A stretch of DNA of 64,000 bases, taken from NCBI GenBank assembly GCA_048887225.1, contig JBHLJY010000008.1, positions 32,001 to 96,000 of the forward strand, in the 5' to 3' direction. Below are positions 26,465 through 33,924 of this stretch, piece after piece. The translations under genes and the position numbers were made by a program. This DNA comes from Candidatus Hodarchaeota archaeon. Its GTDB lineage: Archaea; Asgardarchaeota; Lokiarchaeia; Sigyniarchaeales; SOKP01. The number at the start of each line of letters is the position of its first letter. The stretch's first letter is position 1. The notes beneath the pieces were generated by a model that did not search any database, was not told the DNA's origin, and saw nothing but the letters and a program-made list of their open reading frames with translations.

Positions 26465-27604
26465 TTAAACTCTTTCCAACTCCATTTCTTGAATCGCTTT
26501 TCCAGACCTGAAAGGAATATCATCAACAGATTCCCCTGGACAATATCCGAACTTTTCGTTAAAAGCTTCGTTTAAAGACATGAAGTATAAACTTAAAGGC
26601 AGATTCTGAGGGCAGTTATTATAACAGTTACCACATTCAACACAGCGATCCGCAACATGTGCTATTCTTGTCAATTGATAAGTTTCTTTGTTTATAGTTT
26701 TTTCTTTTCTTTTTTTCGTGAGAATGCAATCTACACAATAACAAACTGGGCATCCACGGATACACATACCACACATCGTACAATTCAGAAGTCTCTCAAT
26801 TTTTTCTTCTTGAGGAACTTTTGCCCATTCTTCAAGGTCCTTCTTTCTTTTCTCTTTTGCCTTTTCAAGAATTTCATTCATTTTTGCTGTGTGAGTGTCT
26901 TTTATATCATCAGGTAATAGCTTTTTATCAATCTTAGATTTTTCTAGGAGATCATTTCCCTTGTCAGAATAGACTTTTAATATAATCTCATCAGAATCAA
27001 TGGGTATTCCAATATCACTTACGCTCAAATCTGCAATAACAGGTATTTTTCTTGTGCATCTTAAGCAATTATCAGAGGGTTGAATATTTAGTTCTTTGGT
27101 CTTTCCATCAGCAAATTTAAAAATTAGTCCGTTATCGCCAATTTTTTCTTTTATTATTTTACTGGGATCGATCTCCTTCATGTTCTTTATTTCTCGACCA
27201 ACATTAATAGCCATTCCCCTATCCTCAATTCCAATAATAAAAAGATTGTCTAGCTCAACTTGTTTTATTTTTGCCAATTCAATTAAAGCTCGTGTATCGC
27301 AGGGACGAGCAATAAGACCTATTTTTGCGTTTTTAGCACCTTCTACCGATTTATGTAAATATTTCGCAGCAGAGTCAGTTCGAGCATAGCCGTATGCAAT
27401 AAAATTATATAGAGGGAAGCTATTAGCATCTCCTAATTTATCAATTAATTTAGGTGTAATCGTAAATCTATCAACAGCATTCGTTTTTTTATCTACTCTT
27501 TCTTGTGCACTGATAATTTTATCTACGATTTTTTCCTGCAATAATGAGCCTAATAACTTAGGAAAATCTTCACTTTTTATAAGATATTCTGCTATTGGGT
27601 CCAA
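26465..27604 (-). CDS. FdhB/FrhB-family F420-binding beta subunit with C-terminal 2x[4Fe-4S]
   Basis: ARPCDTRALIELAKIKQVELDNLFIIG, NCLRC, CTMCGMCIRGCPVCYCVDC, HVADRCVECGNCYNNCP. Confidence 0.85.
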   Translation of the reverse strand: MDPIAEYLIKSEDFPKLLGSLLQEKIVDKIISAQERVDKKTNAVDRFTITPKLIDKLGDANSFPLYNFIAYGYARTDSAAKYLHKSVEGAKNAKIGLIARPCDTRALIELAKIKQVELDNLFIIGIEDRGMAINVGREIKNMKEIDPSKIIKEKIGDNGLIFKFADGKTKELNIQPSDNCLRCTRKIPVIADLSVSDIGIPIDSDEIILKVYSDKGNDLLEKSKIDKKLLPDDIKDTHTAKMNEILEKAKEKRKKDLEEWAKVPQEEKIERLLNCTMCGMCIRGCPVCYCVDCILTKKRKEKTINKETYQLTRIAHVADRCVECGNCYNNCPQNLPLSLYFMSLNEAFNEKFGYCPGESVDDIPFRSGKAIQEMELERV

Positions 27605-27672: not shown

Positions 27673-27746
27673 TATGCGTTAATGGAGCTTCCATTTCTTC
27701 TACTAAGTTCTCATTTTTTTAACTTAGTTTCATTAGCTAACACATA
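27673..27746 (-). promoter_or_regulatory. Eukaryote-like SECIS element in the 3' UTR of vhuD
   Basis: mRNA sense: UAUGUGUUAG-CUA-AUGAA-ACUAAGUU-AAAAAAAUGAG-AACUUAGU-AGAAG-...-UUAACGCAUA; lower helix, AUGA/GA core, perfect 8-bp upper helix, A-rich apical loop; starts immediately after the vhuD stop. Confidence 0.88.
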
Positions 27747-28208
27747 TTATGTTTTTGCCTTTTCTTTGGCTTTTTTCTTTTCAGGTGTGCCGCCTTTGGG
27801 TCTTAATGGGCTAGGACCTAATTCTCTTATCACTTTATCGAATTTAATTGCAGTTTGCTGAAATTTTTGACCCTCTGCTGCAGTGCAATATCCCATCATT
27901 ATTCGCTTTTCATTTAATCCAATCGACTTTAAAACTTCTTTTATGTATTCGACTTGACGGTAAGCGAAGTAATTTCCCGTCTCATAATCGCACTCTTTAG
28001 GGTATCAAGCAATTATCATCACACCATCTGCCCCGCGCCCAAATGCTCTCATAATGACATCAGCACCAACTCTACCGGTACAAGGGACTAAAACAGATCT
28101 TATTGAATCGGGATACTGTGCTCGAATTGTTCCTGCCATATCAGCAGAACCATAACCTCATTTCCAGCATAAAAATGCTATAATTTTAATATTTTCATCT
28201 TTTGCCAT
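27747..28208 (-). CDS. vhuD: Hydrogenase/Hdr-associated [2Fe-2S] subunit MvhD/VhuD, selenoprotein with two Sec (153 aa)
   Basis: Manual translation MAKDENIKIIAFLCWK-U-GYGSADMAG...VPCTGRV...GADGVMIIA-U-YPKECDYETGN...TAAEG...LGPSP; UGA at 28160-28158 (codon 17) and 28007-28005 (codon 68), both at conserved Cys sites; RBS GAGGTG; TAA stop. Confidence 0.95.
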
Positions 28209-28225
28209 TTCTTTTATTCACCTCT

Positions 28226-30190
28226 CTATTCCTCAATTGGTAATAACTCATCAATAAACGCCATGTATTGATCATCCCTAAAGTATGTTAGCTCAATTGC
28301 TTTCGATGGACAAAGTGCTGCACATGTTCCACAGCCTCTACATAATATGAGATCAACGACAAGGTTTCCTTTCTCGTTTACTGAAATAGCATTAAATGGA
28401 CACGCTTCAATACATTTATAACATTTAGCGCATCTTTCATCTGAAGGATCTGCTCTAATTAGTTCCATTGTATATTCTCCTTTACTCATTGGAATTGATG
28501 CTGTTGATGCTGCTCCTTTTGCTTGACTTACAGCTTTATCAATTTCTTTCTGCCCTTGAGCAGAGCCACAAATAATTATTCCAGGTACTTTAGTACTAAT
28601 CGGATCAAGGCGAGCATGATATTCTTTAAGAAATCCATCTGGGCTTCTTTCCATATTTAAAATCTTTGCGATTTGCAACGTACCTGCGGATGGCAATGAA
28701 GCAGGTGATAACACAACCATATGGAACTCTGCTGTTATTACAGCATCGGTGCCAACAGGCTCAAACTGCACTCTTAGATTTTTAGTCAAGGGGTCTTCTT
28801 CAATTTTCCCTACTAGCCCTTTAACGAATATAATTCCTGCATCTCTAGACCTTCTATAATATTCCTCGTAGTCTTTCCCACAAGCTCTCATATCAATATA
28901 AGTACATAGAATCTGCGAATCGGGATATTCTGATTTTATGAGTTTCGAGTTTTTAAGCGATAAATTACAACAAATAACGCTACACCATGGATTTTTTTTG
29001 ACATCTCTGGACCCAACGCAATTAATAAATAATACCTTGGTTGGGCGCTTACCATCGGAAGGACGTTGTAAATGTCCAAGAGTCGGTCCATTTGGTGCAA
29101 GAATTCGTTCTAACTCGATTTGATTAATAACATTCTCATATGTTCCATATCCATAATCATCTCCCTTATAGAGATCCCACCCCGTGGCTATTATAATCGT
29201 TCCTACTTCAAGTTCAATAATTTCATCTTGCTGACTAAAATCAATAGCTTCTTGTTCACAACCATCGACACAAGCAAAACATTCTACACAAGATACTCTT
29301 TCAATATTAGAAACTGCAGGAACAGCCTGGGCAAATGCAATATCAATCACTTTTCTTGCAGAGAGGTTTTCATCAAAGTAGTTAGGTACATATATTGGAC
29401 AAACTTCAGTGCAAGTACCACATCCAGTACATTTATCTTCATCTACAAATCGAGCTTTTCTTTTAACTTTCACTTTAAAATTTCCAATATACCCATCGAC
29501 ATTAACTATTTCGCTGTATGATAAAATTTCAATGTTCTCATGGCGATTAGCTTCTAACATTTTCGGTCCCAATATTCATATTGAGCAGTCATCAGTTGGA
29601 AATGTTCGATCGAGTTGAGACATACGACCTCCAATTGTCGTATTTTTCTCAATTAAATAAACTTTAAATCCTTCATCCCCTAAATCTATAGCAGCACTTA
29701 GCCCCGCGATTCCTCCTCCAACTACTAACGCAACAGGTTTTACTGGAACTGTCTTTGTAGGAACATCCTCTAATAATCTAGCTCGCGCGATACCAGCTCT
29801 TATTAATTCAATAGCTTTTCCTGTAGCGCTTTCTCGAACTTCAAGTGCTTGATGTACGAAAGAGCAATGTTCTCTTATATTGATAAATTCTAAATATCTT
29901 GGAGGTAATCCAGCTTCTTTTAAGATAGCATGAAAAACAGGTTGATGTGTTCTTGGAGTACATGCTGCAACAACAATTCGGTTTAGTTTATGATCGACAA
30001 TTTGTTCCTTGATATAGTCAGCACCGCCAGTAGTACATACTGATATATATTCATAGGCATAAACATTTTCTAATTTATTGATCTCTTCTACGATTTTTGG
30101 AACGTCCAAAATACCAGCAATGTTGATACCTCAGCGACACACGAAAACGCCGACGTTTGATTCTTCTTCTATGGTCTGATTTTCAGACAA
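28226..30190 (-). CDS. hdrA: Heterodisulfide reductase subunit A, selenoprotein with two Sec (654 aa)
   Basis: Joins track ORFs 29576-30109 and 28226-29572 plus an upstream segment in one frame: VGVFVCR-U-GINIAG (UGA 30133-30131) and TFPTDDCSI-U-ILGPKM (UGA 29578-29576); VGGGIAG, CVGSR..WCSVICC and ferredoxin motifs; TTG start 30190 (GTG 30199 possible). Confidence 0.95.
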
Positions 30191-30384
30191 TTTTTTCACT
30201 TTTTTAGCTATAACCTATTATTATAATTCTAAAATAATATTGATGATTAAGTTAATAGTTCTATCATTATAAAAATAATCGTTATAAAATTTCACGATAA
30301 TATTAATATTTTAAATGATAGGATCCATCAAAACTAACAAAAAAAAAATAAAGAATATTTAGAGAATAATATAAAATTTTATAA

Positions 30385-30930
30385 TTATTCCTTACTTTCA
30401 AAATCTTCAATTACTTCAGCAAAAAGTCGTTTTGCAGCATCAATTCGGTTTTCTTCGCCAATTTGGACGACATTCTTTAATGATATTGCTTCTTTAGGAC
30501 AAACTGCAATACATTGAGGCTCTACTTCTCCGACTTCAGGATCAATAAATTCTTCTCTCATATCTTTGCAAAGATCACACACTAAGGCTTTTTGTGTATC
30601 TATATGAAGCGAAATCACTCCAAAGTCACATGCCCTAATACAGAATCCGCACCCATTGCATTTATCCTCGTCTACGACAATTGAACCTTCCTCATCTTTA
30701 TCTAAAGCTTTTTCAGGACAAGAACGAATACAAGGTGCATCTTCACATTTTTGGCAAGCTAGAGCGATATTTAAGACAGGCTCAATTCGAACTCTATGGA
30801 TTCGAGTATTAATTGGATTGAACTCGCCGTCGTGGACAAATGAACAAACAGATTCGCATGTTTCACAACCAGTACATAAATCAGGATTAACAATAATAAA
30901 TTGATGTATTTTTTTTTTCTTAGCCGACAT
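30385..30930 (-). CDS. 4Fe-4S dicluster protein (small Fe-S partner of AOR, HydN/CooF-like)
   Basis: CTGCETCESVC, CQKCEDAPCIRSCP, CNGCGFCIRAC, CDLC..CIAVCP; start abuts the AOR stop. Confidence 0.9.
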   Translation of the reverse strand: MSAKKKKIHQFIIVNPDLCTGCETCESVCSFVHDGEFNPINTRIHRVRIEPVLNIALACQKCEDAPCIRSCPEKALDKDEEGSIVVDEDKCNGCGFCIRACDFGVISLHIDTQKALVCDLCKDMREEFIDPEVGEVEPQCIAVCPKEAISLKNVVQIGEENRIDAAKRLFAEVIEDFESKE

Positions 30931-32853
30931 CTATTTCTTTGCCTCTTTTTTTTTTAATTTTCCAATTACAAAATCCATTCCAAGTTTCTTCAGAGTTGCG
31001 TCTGTCGGAATTCCTGTTTCTTTATCCCATCCACGTGCCTCGTAATATCCTGAAAGTAAAGTTTGGAAACCATTTTCATCCAATGTGACTCCCTTTGCAG
31101 GTCCTCTTGTATGAGCTTCCTTAAAAAATCTCTCTGGTGGATGATCATCTTTCCTTGTCCAGCCTTCTCTTATATTGAAACATTTCGAAAGAGTTACGAT
31201 TGCATCTCCTCTTTCGAGAATTGTCTTTTCAGTGTGAGGAATGCCTGTTACAAGTTCAAAAACTTTTGCCATTTCTGCATCGTTCTCATAAATACCTCTT
31301 GTGAACTTACAGATAATATATGAGTCTATTAGAGCGTAAACATCTTCAATATTTTTTATTGCTTTTCCACGTTCAACAGGTTTATCGTAGCTGAATCGAT
31401 CAAATGTTCCTTTAGCGTCTAAACCGTAGGCACCATTTCTTAGATGACATGCTCCTCGAATTGCGACACTCTCTCCTACTGCAAATGAATTCATACCATG
31501 AATATCAAATGCAGGCATCTCTAATCCTTTAATTTGCATAGCGTAATAACTTGCGTTTGTCCTTCCCATTTTTTCTAATCTTATACCTGCCATTTTTGTT
31601 CCGTCGGCAAAAATTTCTCCAGGAAAGCCCTTACCTAGTATCATTTCTTCGTTGAATCTAACCAAATTCTTTGTCGATCCAAAGGGTAATTCGTAGCCTA
31701 AATCTTCTTTTGTGATAATTCCTTCTTCGAAACAATCACATGCCATAGCACATGTAACACCTCCAGAAATGGCATCAATTCCTAAATCATCGCATTGTGT
31801 TATACATTTAAAGATTGTTGGCCAATCAGAATTACCACAAGAAGTACCATATCCATAAATTAACTCAACATCAACGCTGGCAACGAGATTAGGATAATCT
31901 GGATGTTTTTTAGGAACTCTAGCTAAATGATCACATGCAATAGAACATTGCGAGCAAGCTACCTTTTTAACTACCCATTCCTCGTTTAAAACTTCTCCGT
32001 TAATTATATCTACAATCTTATCCCACGAGCCTTCACGATGATTATTAACTGGAAACATCCCAAGTTTGTTATAACTTAAAAGTCCTGCAGGGGTACCTTG
32101 ATCTCGATATTTTGCTGTAGCAGGACCATTAGCTATTTTAATTAACTTTTTAGCAAGTTTATAAAATTCTACTGGATAAGCAACTTTAACTCCCTTTGTA
32201 CCCCTAAAACAAACCGCTTTTAAGTTTTTAGATCCCATTACAGCTCCCATTCCAGTCCTTCCAGCTTGTCTGTTTCTATCATTTGTAATACATGCCAATC
32301 TGGACATTCTTTCACCTGCTGGTCCAATAGCCATGACTGCTAGTCTTTGATCTTCGAATTCTTCTCTTAAGATTTCTTCTGTCTCCCAACAACCCTTCCC
32401 CCATATTGTATCTTTACAAGGGACTAGGTACCTATCATCATCGTCAACTACCAAATAAACTGGTTCAGCAGCTTTTCCTGTAAAGACAATCATATTAACT
32501 CCAGCACGTCGGGCTTGGGCTCCAACGCTTCCAGAAGAGACTGCCATACCGAACATTCCAGTTAATGGTGATTTGGCAAAAACTCCAAATTTAGAGCTTG
32601 TTGGTAAAATTGTCGTAGGAAAAGGACCCTGGGCATAAACGAACACATTATCTGGACTAAGAGGATCAATCCCAGGTTTTAACTCGTCCCATAGGACCTT
32701 AGCTGCAAAACCATACCCTCCTATCCAATCGCGACAAAATTCTGGAGACAACCTTGACTCTTTTATTGAACCGTTTGTTAAGTCAACATCTAGTCTAATT
32801 TGAGAATAACCGTGTACATCGTCTGGAACAGCTACATCTTTTGACTTAGACAT
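30931..32853 (-). CDS. aor: Tungsten-containing aldehyde:ferredoxin oxidoreductase (AOR/WOR) family enzyme
   Basis: KSPLTG, IGPAGE, GRTGMGAVMGSKNLKA, CSQCSIAC, CDDLGID, RGACH, ICKF, YYEARGWD; ATG 32853 (GTG 32862 possible). Confidence 0.92.
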   Translation of the reverse strand: MSKSKDVAVPDDVHGYSQIRLDVDLTNGSIKESRLSPEFCRDWIGGYGFAAKVLWDELKPGIDPLSPDNVFVYAQGPFPTTILPTSSKFGVFAKSPLTGMFGMAVSSGSVGAQARRAGVNMIVFTGKAAEPVYLVVDDDDRYLVPCKDTIWGKGCWETEEILREEFEDQRLAVMAIGPAGERMSRLACITNDRNRQAGRTGMGAVMGSKNLKAVCFRGTKGVKVAYPVEFYKLAKKLIKIANGPATAKYRDQGTPAGLLSYNKLGMFPVNNHREGSWDKIVDIINGEVLNEEWVVKKVACSQCSIACDHLARVPKKHPDYPNLVASVDVELIYGYGTSCGNSDWPTIFKCITQCDDLGIDAISGGVTCAMACDCFEEGIITKEDLGYELPFGSTKNLVRFNEEMILGKGFPGEIFADGTKMAGIRLEKMGRTNASYYAMQIKGLEMPAFDIHGMNSFAVGESVAIRGACHLRNGAYGLDAKGTFDRFSYDKPVERGKAIKNIEDVYALIDSYIICKFTRGIYENDAEMAKVFELVTGIPHTEKTILERGDAIVTLSKCFNIREGWTRKDDHPPERFFKEAHTRGPAKGVTLDENGFQTLLSGYYEARGWDKETGIPTDATLKKLGMDFVIGKLKKKEAKK

Positions 32854-33054
32854 GTTTTTCACATTAAAAAGTATTTTTTTTAATATAATTTAAAAATCTA
32901 TTTATTAAAGAGGTTTATTTATTTTAATTTTGATTGTTAATTTGAATAACTCATTTTTATTAATATTTATTTAAATGTTAAGAAATAATTTAAAATTCCT
33001 ATTTTTTTATTATTCATTTTGAAAATAAAATAGAAGGAAAAAAATCAAATTAGG

Positions 33055-33924
33055 CTATTTTTTTGGATGACCTAAAGCACAAACTTTTAGACAAACTGAA
33101 CAGTAATTATTATTTATTAAGCTTTCAATGCACTTTGAGCGATCTATATGTGTGATTACACCTGATCCTTTAACTTTCTCAATAGGTTTTTCAAAGGCGG
33201 CCCCACCTTTGCAATTTTTTATGCAAGCTCCGCATTTTTCGCAAAATTCTTTCATTTCGCTAAAATCTCTTTTTGAACTTTTTGTAATCTCTGCGTCAGT
33301 AGAAATTATAGCCCATCTTTGGCGAGGGCCGAATTCTGGAGTAATGATAAGTCCATTTCTTCCCATTATTCCTAGATTAGCTGCGACAGCATGAGCAGTA
33401 AATAAAAGTTTTCCTCCAAACGGATGATGAGCCTCTGCTTTATAGCCAAGATCTTTTAAATAATTTGTTAATTCAATAGTTTTTTCGCCTAATTCTTTAT
33501 AAACTCTAAACGCTTCTATGGCACCTAAAACACTTGGTGCTGTCTTAATTTTCTCCCATACCATTTCTTGTCCAAGTACTATACCGTTTTTGCCGTAGAT
33601 TTTGAGATTTTTAAAAACATAATTTTCGTCTATAGGCGTATATCCTATTTGGTCAATTCCCATTTTTTTTGCTTTCTTTTCAAATTCTTCCCAGAACTCA
33701 GTCGTAGTTTCTGTTTTAACATTGTTTTCGTTACCATCTTTGGTTTTTCGAGCCTCTTGAAATCCTTTAAAAGTATCTTTTATATATTTACTAAATTCTT
33801 TTGCAGTTTTGGGATCCAATCTCTTTTCAGGTGTCATTTTCATTGTAAAGAGTTTAGTTGGTGCAATAAAGATTAATCCCTCATTTTTACCAATCACAGT
33901 GGGTTTAATTTCTTCGGTAGCCAT
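33055..33924 (-). CDS. Cobalamin/Fe-S protein of the reductive dehalogenase / epoxyqueuosine reductase superfamily
   Basis: AVAANLGIMGRNGLIITPEFGPRQR, FCEKCGACIKNC, C..CSVCLKVC; no TAT signal. Confidence 0.75.
   Translation of the reverse strand: MATEEIKPTVIGKNEGLIFIAPTKLFTMKMTPEKRLDPKTAKEFSKYIKDTFKGFQEARKTKDGNENNVKTETTTEFWEEFEKKAKKMGIDQIGYTPIDENYVFKNLKIYGKNGIVLGQEMVWEKIKTAPSVLGAIEAFRVYKELGEKTIELTNYLKDLGYKAEAHHPFGGKLLFTAHAVAANLGIMGRNGLIITPEFGPRQRWAIISTDAEITKSSKRDFSEMKEFCEKCGACIKNCKGGAAFEKPIEKVKGSGVITHIDRSKCIESLINNNYCSVCLKVCALGHPKK

Follow-up and report, generated by a model that had tools for sequence, protein, structure and literature searches.

The hdrA and vhuD genes, which lie in tandem on the minus strand of the 64,000-nt stretch of Candidatus Hodarchaeota DNA analyzed here (the window), are very probably two intact selenoprotein genes, in which four in-frame UGA codons specify selenocysteine (Sec) with the help of a single shared SECIS element. 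The arrangement is already known: it was published in 2016 for Lokiarchaeota, where a multi-Sec HdrA and a two-Sec VhuD have one SECIS common to the tandem (Mariotti et al., 2016, Mol Biol Evol; PMC4989117), and it was surveyed across Asgard archaea in 2024 (ISME J; PMC11227280). The window provides a well-documented further case in which one eukaryote-like SECIS would serve several UGAs spread over 2.4 kb in two cistrons. Such sharing of a SECIS has been published as a case for descent of the eukaryotic Sec system from archaea. Two modest new leads are the clustering of Sec on four cysteines of HdrA and a conserved third arm of the SECIS.

With TGA read as Sec (U), hdrA forms one frame of 654 amino acids and vhuD one of 153, both otherwise intact (Table 1). 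The original prediction had placed four UGAs inside these two genes, and translation of the minus strand recovers each of them at the position given. That prediction had also noted that hdrA is split, and vhuD missed, in the list of open reading frames; with translation table 11 the list breaks up both genes, hdrA into pieces of 177 and 448 amino acids and vhuD into fragments of 44 and 50 amino acids. Standard gene callers likewise split hdrA and lose vhuD, and at least four other hdrA genes of the same genome suffer the same fate; reconstructions of Asgard energy metabolism therefore undercount these enzymes. The vhuD ATG begins 17 nt past the hdrA stop. An alternative in-frame start of hdrA, a GTG at 30199, is found three codons 5' of the TTG at 30190.

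Each of the eight genes that lie between 24434 and 33924 stops at TAA or TAG, in line with what had been claimed for the cluster, and hdrA and vhuD are the only two of the eight with an in-frame TGA. The FrhB-like gene starts 69 nt past the SECIS and is a syntenic partner of the tandem, being located downstream of vhuD in 17 of the 20 loci that we compared. No hdrBC or hydrogenase genes adjoin hdrA-vhuD here.

Table 1. Coordinates of the hdrA-vhuD tandem, its in-frame UGA codons, the SECIS element and the downstream gene, in window positions.
Feature	Position	Strand	Description
hdrA	28226..30190	minus	654 codons, TTG start at 30190, stop TAG
UGA, HdrA codon 20	30131..30133	minus	VCR-U-G, CxC motif of N-terminal domain
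UGA, HdrA codon 205	29576..29578	minus	DDCSI-U, canonical CxxU site
vhuD/mvhD	27747..28208	minus	153 codons, ATG start, stop TAA
UGA, VhuD codon 17	28158..28160	minus	LCWK-U-GYG
UGA, VhuD codon 68	28005..28007	minus	IIA-U-YPKEC
lokiSECIS-type element	27674..27745	minus	three-helix junction; fold and covariation
SECIS closing helix	27745-27739 with 27680-27674	minus	
SECIS AUGA	27733-27730	minus	
SECIS helix II	27728-27721 with 27709-27702	minus	
SECIS apical loop	27720-27710	minus	11 nt, AAAAAAAUGAG
SECIS GA	27700-27699	minus	
SECIS third hairpin	27695-27681	minus	
FrhB/FdhB-like Fe-S flavoprotein gene	26465..27604	minus	not a selenoprotein; Pfam FrhB_FdhB_C and Fer4

The assignment of the two proteins to the HdrA and VhuD/MvhD families is upheld by comparison with solved structures and family models. 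The long protein matches solved HdrA chains with E values of 2e-207 (9sfi_A) and 1.2e-198 (5odc_A). It scores 748 bits over residues 13-650 with the NCBIfam HdrA2 model, below the curated cut-off of 1100, because this model contains a fused MvhD part. The NCBIfam models NF041778, NF040770 and NF041891 give 748, 608 and 577 bits, each below its cut-off (1100, 1400 and 1300, respectively). By fold and sequence, the long protein is a homologue of HdrA, with scores that fall short of the equivalog cut-offs for the methanogen enzymes. VhuD scores 143.3 bits (E 4.6e-42) with Pfam FlpD, above the cut-off of 22.3, and 136.8 bits with NCBIfam NF045873 (F420-non-reducing hydrogenase subunit VhuD), below the cut-off of 215. 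It also matches the MvhD-like tail of the HdrA2 model, and solved MvhD/VhuD chains in the PDB are matched with E values between 1e-31 and 1e-34.

Aligned with the Hdr-Vhu-Fwd complex of Methanococcus maripaludis (9sfi; PMC13518236), residue 205 of HdrA coincides with a non-standard residue, X, in chain A, and residues 17 and 68 of VhuD both coincide with an X in chain K. We read X in these chains as Sec. Three of the four sites are therefore classical, and the three Sec positions shared with Methanococcales are the equivalent of HdrA residue 197 and both VhuD sites. This agrees with two earlier statements on the locus, that the CxxU motif of HdrA is the classical site and that HdrA and VhuD are selenoproteins in Methanococcales. 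Residue 20 of HdrA aligns to a cysteine in 9sfi_A; the HdrA of Methanococcales has one Sec, whereas here a second Sec replaces the second cysteine of the N-terminal CxC motif.

We also considered site 20 of HdrA as a structural counterpart of site 17 of VhuD. This equivalence was abandoned because hhalign aligned the HdrA N-terminal domain to VhuD with an E value of 0.032 (probability 1.6%), and because MvhD chains ranked only 23-38, with TM scores of about 0.45, in a Foldseek search with an AF2 model (pLDDT 88.7), where they stand among generic flavodoxin-like folds.

A six-frame search of the genome itself and 40 relatives of the same order detected HdrA in all 41 genomes. The copies in the 17 closest relatives (69-85% identity) have two to four in-frame TGAs apiece, and a deeper group of HdrA paralogues (about 41-46% identity) has none. 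From 20 genomes we extracted 20 hdrA-vhuD loci, comprising that of the window and 19 from relatives at 53-85% protein identity. In every locus vhuD is the next gene after hdrA, and in 19 of the 20 the two are 13-28 nt apart. Codon 205 of HdrA and codon 17 of VhuD are TGA in all 20 loci, codon 20 of HdrA is TGA in 18 and Cys in two, and codon 68 of VhuD is TGA in 19 and Cys in one. No residue other than Sec or Cys occurs at any of the four sites in these 20 loci. Because the columns hold TGA or Cys codons only, the four TGAs are not a matter of chance, and the residues of the relatives substantiate the proposal that each UGA occupies a family-conserved cysteine. The hdrA stop is TAA or TAG in 19 of the 20 loci; in the remaining one (L042), a TGA seems to close the hdrA frame, and 275 nt separate hdrA from vhuD.

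The same comparison leaves a likelihood close to nil for the explanation that the TGAs arose through errors in sequencing or assembly, or that the two genes are decaying pseudogenes. The window does come from a metagenome-type assembly, and two raw reads were placed on the region in one run (X21), but the same TGAs are present at the same codons in 18-20 of the 20 genomes. Two other studies provide contigs that cover the whole region; they are about 96.5% identical to it, with 116 differences, and among the 40 of these that were listed none lies inside a TGA codon. The otherwise intact frames of hdrA and vhuD argue against decay.

The genome (3.27 Mb in 49 contigs, 30.5% G+C) was searched for Sec machinery, as the original prediction had proposed. 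SelD (180 bits, itself with one in-frame TGA), SepSecS (490 bits) and EFSec (249 bits) were all found with scores over the cut-off. PSTK is represented by a candidate with 156 bits in the NCBIfam model, under the cut-off of 290.5, and with 124 bits in Pfam KTI12, where it is the best KTI12-type match. A tRNA-Sec gene was located at G000:C4:44554-44703 by blastn with the tRNA-Sec of relatives (95% identity over 59 nt). It lies 73 nt upstream of the SepSecS gene, and EFSec is encoded about 5 kb away on the other strand. The tRNA has a UCA anticodon, an acceptor stem of 9 bp, a D stem of 7 bp that carries a 4-nt loop, and a discriminator G. Two inserts (introns) of about 29 and 30 nt interrupt the D arm and the T loop. 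Of 1159 junction variants from which both inserts had been excised in silico, ARAGORN recognizes 497 as tRNA-SeC(tca) and assigns no other identity to any variant. An intron-bearing tRNA-Sec gene that is about 5 kb away from the EFSec gene and on the opposite strand is a feature shared with Lokiarchaeota, for which one intron is reported in contrast to the two found here.

The tRNA-Sec gene is missed by standard tools because it carries the two introns. The Rfam tRNA-Sec model, which scores over its cut-off in 22 of the 41 genomes, finds nothing over it in this genome or in nine others of the genus, and the best matches below the cut-off in this genome are ordinary tRNAs, including a tRNA-His with an intron. 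ARAGORN, run with and without introns, reports no tRNA-Sec in the unmodified genome, and an Rfam scan of 30 kb around EFSec and SepSecS retrieves only an intron-rich ordinary tRNA. A descriptor scan for the 9/4 fold gave AT-rich chance matches only, and a scan for GC islands was too unspecific.

TGA is otherwise an ordinary stop codon in this genome: it ends 242 of the 1726 ORFs of at least 250 amino acids, and 4 of the 44 long ORFs in the window. These counts argue against a changed code, in which TGA would stand for a standard amino acid throughout, as does the restriction of in-frame TGA to two of eight neighboring genes. A related alternative is that the UGAs are read as cysteine, without selenium. 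All four sites are Cys-equivalent, so that insertion of cysteine would yield a working protein, but the presence of the complete Sec machinery together with a SECIS speaks against a non-Sec reading. We regard both of these variants as highly improbable, and Sec remains the preferred reading of the four codons.

The SECIS is a lokiSECIS-type element located directly behind vhuD, with its AUGA starting 14 nt past the vhuD stop. It is absent from the original prediction and sits, at 27745..27674, just beyond the region which that prediction covered. A single A separates the AUGA from helix II, another A separates helix II from the GA, and the 11-nt apical loop is A-rich. The fold of the window's sequence taken singly has an energy of -14.2 kcal/mol (z -3.0), and none of 200 shuffled sequences was as good. 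A strict pattern search detected the element behind vhuD in 16 of the 20 loci, with matches in L041 and L042 counted. The match in L041 overlaps the stop codon and is doubtful. In L030, L031 and L036 the element was seen by alignment to be present with one mismatch or with UUGA.

For covariation we aligned the element from 17 loci, one per genome, leaving out L041-L043, which have no alignable element at the expected place. Compensatory changes are seen in seven of the eight pairs of helix II. Paired cells make up 94.4% of the total, compared with 85.9% after shuffling of columns (none of 500 shuffles reaches the observed value), and fall to 32-45% when the partners are slid against each other. 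UGA and GA are invariant in the 17 loci, and RNAalifold returned the same three helices from the alignment when no structure was supplied. In the closing helix, AUGUGUU pairs with AACRCAU. A hairpin that is almost invariant, AUGG-N5-CCAU, is inserted between the GA and the closing strand. By its conserved sequence motifs (AUGA...GA) the element would be classed as a SECIS of the kink-turn type. A covariance model of the SECIS, run on the genome, recovered the window's own element alone among the 150 of 4069 candidates that were scored.

The form of the element agrees with the published lokiSECIS (PMC4989117), with which it shares the AUGA, a stem of the 9-bp class, an 11-nt loop that begins with adenines and ends with G, the GA that follows, and the position just after vhuD. 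Helix II is 9 bp long in several relatives, and differs from the published lokiSECIS in that it consists here of eight Watson-Crick pairs and an A.A. The 2024 survey names, in the parts compared, an internal loop and a lower stem as features of the SECIS, and no third hairpin (PMC11227280). The conserved third hairpin and the closing helix therefore go beyond those portions of the published descriptions with which we compared them. We speculate that the reach of the shared SECIS, over 2.4 kb and across two cistrons, may depend on the third hairpin. The SECIS of Methanococcales is of the euryarchaeal type, unlike the element found here. The likeness to the eukaryotic SECIS extends to the AUGA before the helix, the GA after it, the adenines that open the apical loop, the 3' location and the action at a distance; in contrast to the eukaryotic form, helix II is shorter, a third hairpin stands between the GA and the closing helix, and two cistrons would be served. 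As far as the sections compared of Mariotti et al. (2016; PMC4989117) indicate, no SBP2 is known in these archaea.

The short spacer of 17 nt, the preference of hdrA for stops other than UGA and the published analysis, in the parts compared (Mariotti et al., 2016; PMC4989117), lead us to infer that hdrA and vhuD are translated from one mRNA with a common SECIS. EFSec carrying Sec-tRNA(Sec) would be recruited via this single element and would decode the four UGAs; these precede the AUGA by 274 and 427 nt in vhuD and by 1845 and 2400 nt in hdrA. With hdrA stopping at UAG and vhuD at UAA, termination would remain independent of the SECIS.

The distances of 1845 and 2400 nt, with a stop codon and a further start in between, are also the reason to consider that the SECIS behind vhuD serves vhuD alone, and that the UGAs of hdrA are decoded by way of another signal, for example in the coding sequence, or by read-through independent of distance. 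We think this unlikely. The spacer between the two genes (13-28 nt in 19 of the 20 loci) is too short for an element of its own, and hdrA avoids a UGA stop in 19 of the 20 loci, as expected if the SECIS acts on hdrA. In the portions compared of the analysis by Mariotti et al. (2016; PMC4989117), RNAz revealed no other significant structure in HdrA coding sequences with 200-nt flanks, and just one lokiSECIS was found per tandem.

A common SECIS for both genes is also what the Lokiarchaeota tandem has, and nothing of substance distinguishes the two cases as far as the finding itself is concerned. In both, HdrA has several Sec residues, one of them at the canonical site near residue 200, and VhuD has two Sec in about 150 amino acids, with vhuD directly 3' on the same strand, a very short spacer and an hdrA stop other than UGA. 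Together with the traits of the tRNA-Sec, the form of the SECIS suggests that the organism is of Lokiarchaeia type. According to published papers, the hdrA-vhuD neighborhood is the same in Methanococcales. Unlike in Methanococcales, an FrhB-like gene is located 3' here, and hdrBC and hydrogenase genes are not adjacent.

We take the enzyme to be an HdrA-MvhD electron-bifurcating module. Its partner is probably the FrhB-like protein encoded alongside, and the module is probably not a CoM-S-S-CoB reductase. We favor this reading because the conserved neighbor of the tandem is a gene for an FrhB-like Fe-S flavoprotein and not hdrBC. Residues 205 and 20 of HdrA would most likely function at the N-terminal [4Fe-4S] cluster and in the relay to the bifurcating FAD, and the two Sec residues of VhuD would most likely be placed at or beside its [2Fe-2S] cluster. 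The first HdrA structure appeared later than the 2016 analysis of the Lokiarchaeota tandem by Mariotti and co-workers. In the parts compared, that analysis describes the Sec sites as not being cluster ligands (Mariotti et al., 2016; PMC4989117). Cys197 of HdrA is reported to ligate the N-terminal cluster (Chadwick et al.; PMC9012536), and the 2026 paper on the M. maripaludis structure describes Sec197 and a cysteine as a possible selenenylsulfide relay from the N-terminal cluster to FAD (PMC13518236), both statements being taken from the parts of these papers compared here.

The distribution of Sec was also compared among 66 HdrA genes, comprising those of the 20 loci, 40 more with at least one TGA and six paralogues from the genome of the window. 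In this sample, which is biased towards Sec-containing genes and includes related genomes that are not independent, 64 genes have Sec at residue 205, 51 at residue 20, 25 at residue 77 and 10 at residue 52. Residues 254, 304, 307, 407, 408, 597 and 623 are Sec once each, and Cys18 is replaced by Sec in none of the 66 genes. Read at residues 18, 20, 52, 77 and 205, the patterns are CUCCU (29 genes), CUCUU (17), CCCCU (7) and CUUUU (5), followed by CCUCU (3), CCUUU (2), CCCCC (2) and CCCUU (1). The N-terminal CxU motif, which had been described as the less familiar site, ranks second among the Sec sites in HdrA of this order, with 51 of the 66 genes. Mariotti et al. (2016; PMC4989117) give, in the parts compared, five possible Sec positions in HdrA and up to four per gene. 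The clustering on cysteines 20, 52, 77 and 205 goes beyond those parts of the published accounts to which it was compared.

Residues 20, 52 and 77 are cysteines of the N-terminal domain, and residue 205 is the equivalent of Cys197, which reaches the cluster from the partner subunit. A tentative idea, on which we would place limited weight, is that Sec in the HdrA of this lineage is not randomly distributed and is aimed at one metal site, the N-terminal [4Fe-4S] cluster. If residues 20, 52, 77 and 205 are its ligands, the HdrA of the window would have a [4Fe-4S] cluster ligated by two cysteines and two Sec. Five genes, one of them a paralogue in the same genome, would then have an all-selenolate [4Fe-4S] cluster, and the low-potential branch of bifurcation would contain a natural iron-sulfur cluster with selenium ligands. 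The paralogue at G000:C12:40460-42385 of this genome has five Sec, an adjacent pair among them.

Sec positions were compared across 66 HdrA genes, comprising those of the 20 hdrA-vhuD loci (L024-L043), 40 further genes with at least one TGA (L058-L097) and six paralogues from the genome to which the window belongs (G000). Sec falls mostly on four cysteines, which are, in the numbering of the window's HdrA, 205 (64 of 66 genes), 20 (51/66), 77 (25/66) and 52 (10/66). Seven more positions carry Sec once each, and none of the 66 genes has Sec at Cys18, two residues from site 20. Locations of the features discussed here are summarized in the table.

Locations of Sec-related features and of the genes upstream of hdrA
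Feature	Location	Strand	Context
SelD gene	L006:1501-2283 = G000:C2:204406-205188		
tRNA-Sec(UCA) gene	L044:18554-18703 = G000:C4:44554-44703	+	
lokiSECIS, three-way junction	window 27674-27745	-	
hdrA paralogue with five in-frame TGAs	G000:C12:40460-42385	-	outside the window
L042	G031:C209:8047-13008		more distant relative, 58% identity
L041	G016:C32:27801-32714		orthologous hdrA-vhuD locus
4Fe-4S protein, aldehyde:ferredoxin oxidoreductase and reductive-dehalogenase-like genes	window 30385-33924	-	upstream of hdrA

The lokiSECIS, the RNA element behind vhuD, adopts the form of a three-way junction in the orthologue group of the window locus. Besides the published AUGA/helix/GA core, it has on the flanks of this core a nearly invariant AUGG-N5-CCAU hairpin (27695-27681) and a closing helix, neither of which features in the consulted sections of the 2016 and 2024 papers (PMC4989117, PMC11227280). 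Position 27701 (plus strand) is T in the window and A in contigs from three other metagenomes; on the RNA, the variant gives helix II a ninth pair, A-U, in place of the A.A at its base, matching helix II of several relatives.

The tRNA-Sec(UCA) gene of G000 contains two inserts: the D arm carries one of ~29 nt, and the T loop one of 30 nt. The discriminator base is G, and CCA is encoded directly after it; SepSecS starts 73 nt downstream of the gene. The gene was detected neither by the Rfam model nor by ARAGORN. Rfam tRNA-Sec matches above cut-off were found in none of the 10 genomes of the genus, for which such inserts are probably the cause. In the SelD gene of G000, a single in-frame TGA falls within the N-terminal FG-C/U-S-C/U-K motif, and the Sec machinery thus itself depends on Sec.

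Among the five TGAs of the hdrA paralogue on contig C12, two are adjacent, within a VI-CC-NL motif, and one lies in the last ferredoxin motif. The 110 nt past its stop contain neither vhuD nor an obvious AUGA-type SECIS; the 'always in tandem' rule would not hold for this gene. In L042, a TGA apparently terminates hdrA, with vhuD starting ~275 nt or more downstream, in conflict with the rule by which UGA is avoided as the hdrA stop codon. In L041, HdrA carries three Sec residues and VhuD carries two; no alignable lokiSECIS was found at the usual site behind vhuD, where a pattern search gave one doubtful match overlapping the stop codon.

Upstream of hdrA, the aldehyde:ferredoxin oxidoreductase gene matches AFOR_C with 330 bits, and the reductive-dehalogenase-like gene scores 76 bits against TIGR02486, below the cut-off of 160. 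The Fe-S protein and AOR genes keep their synteny in several relatives.
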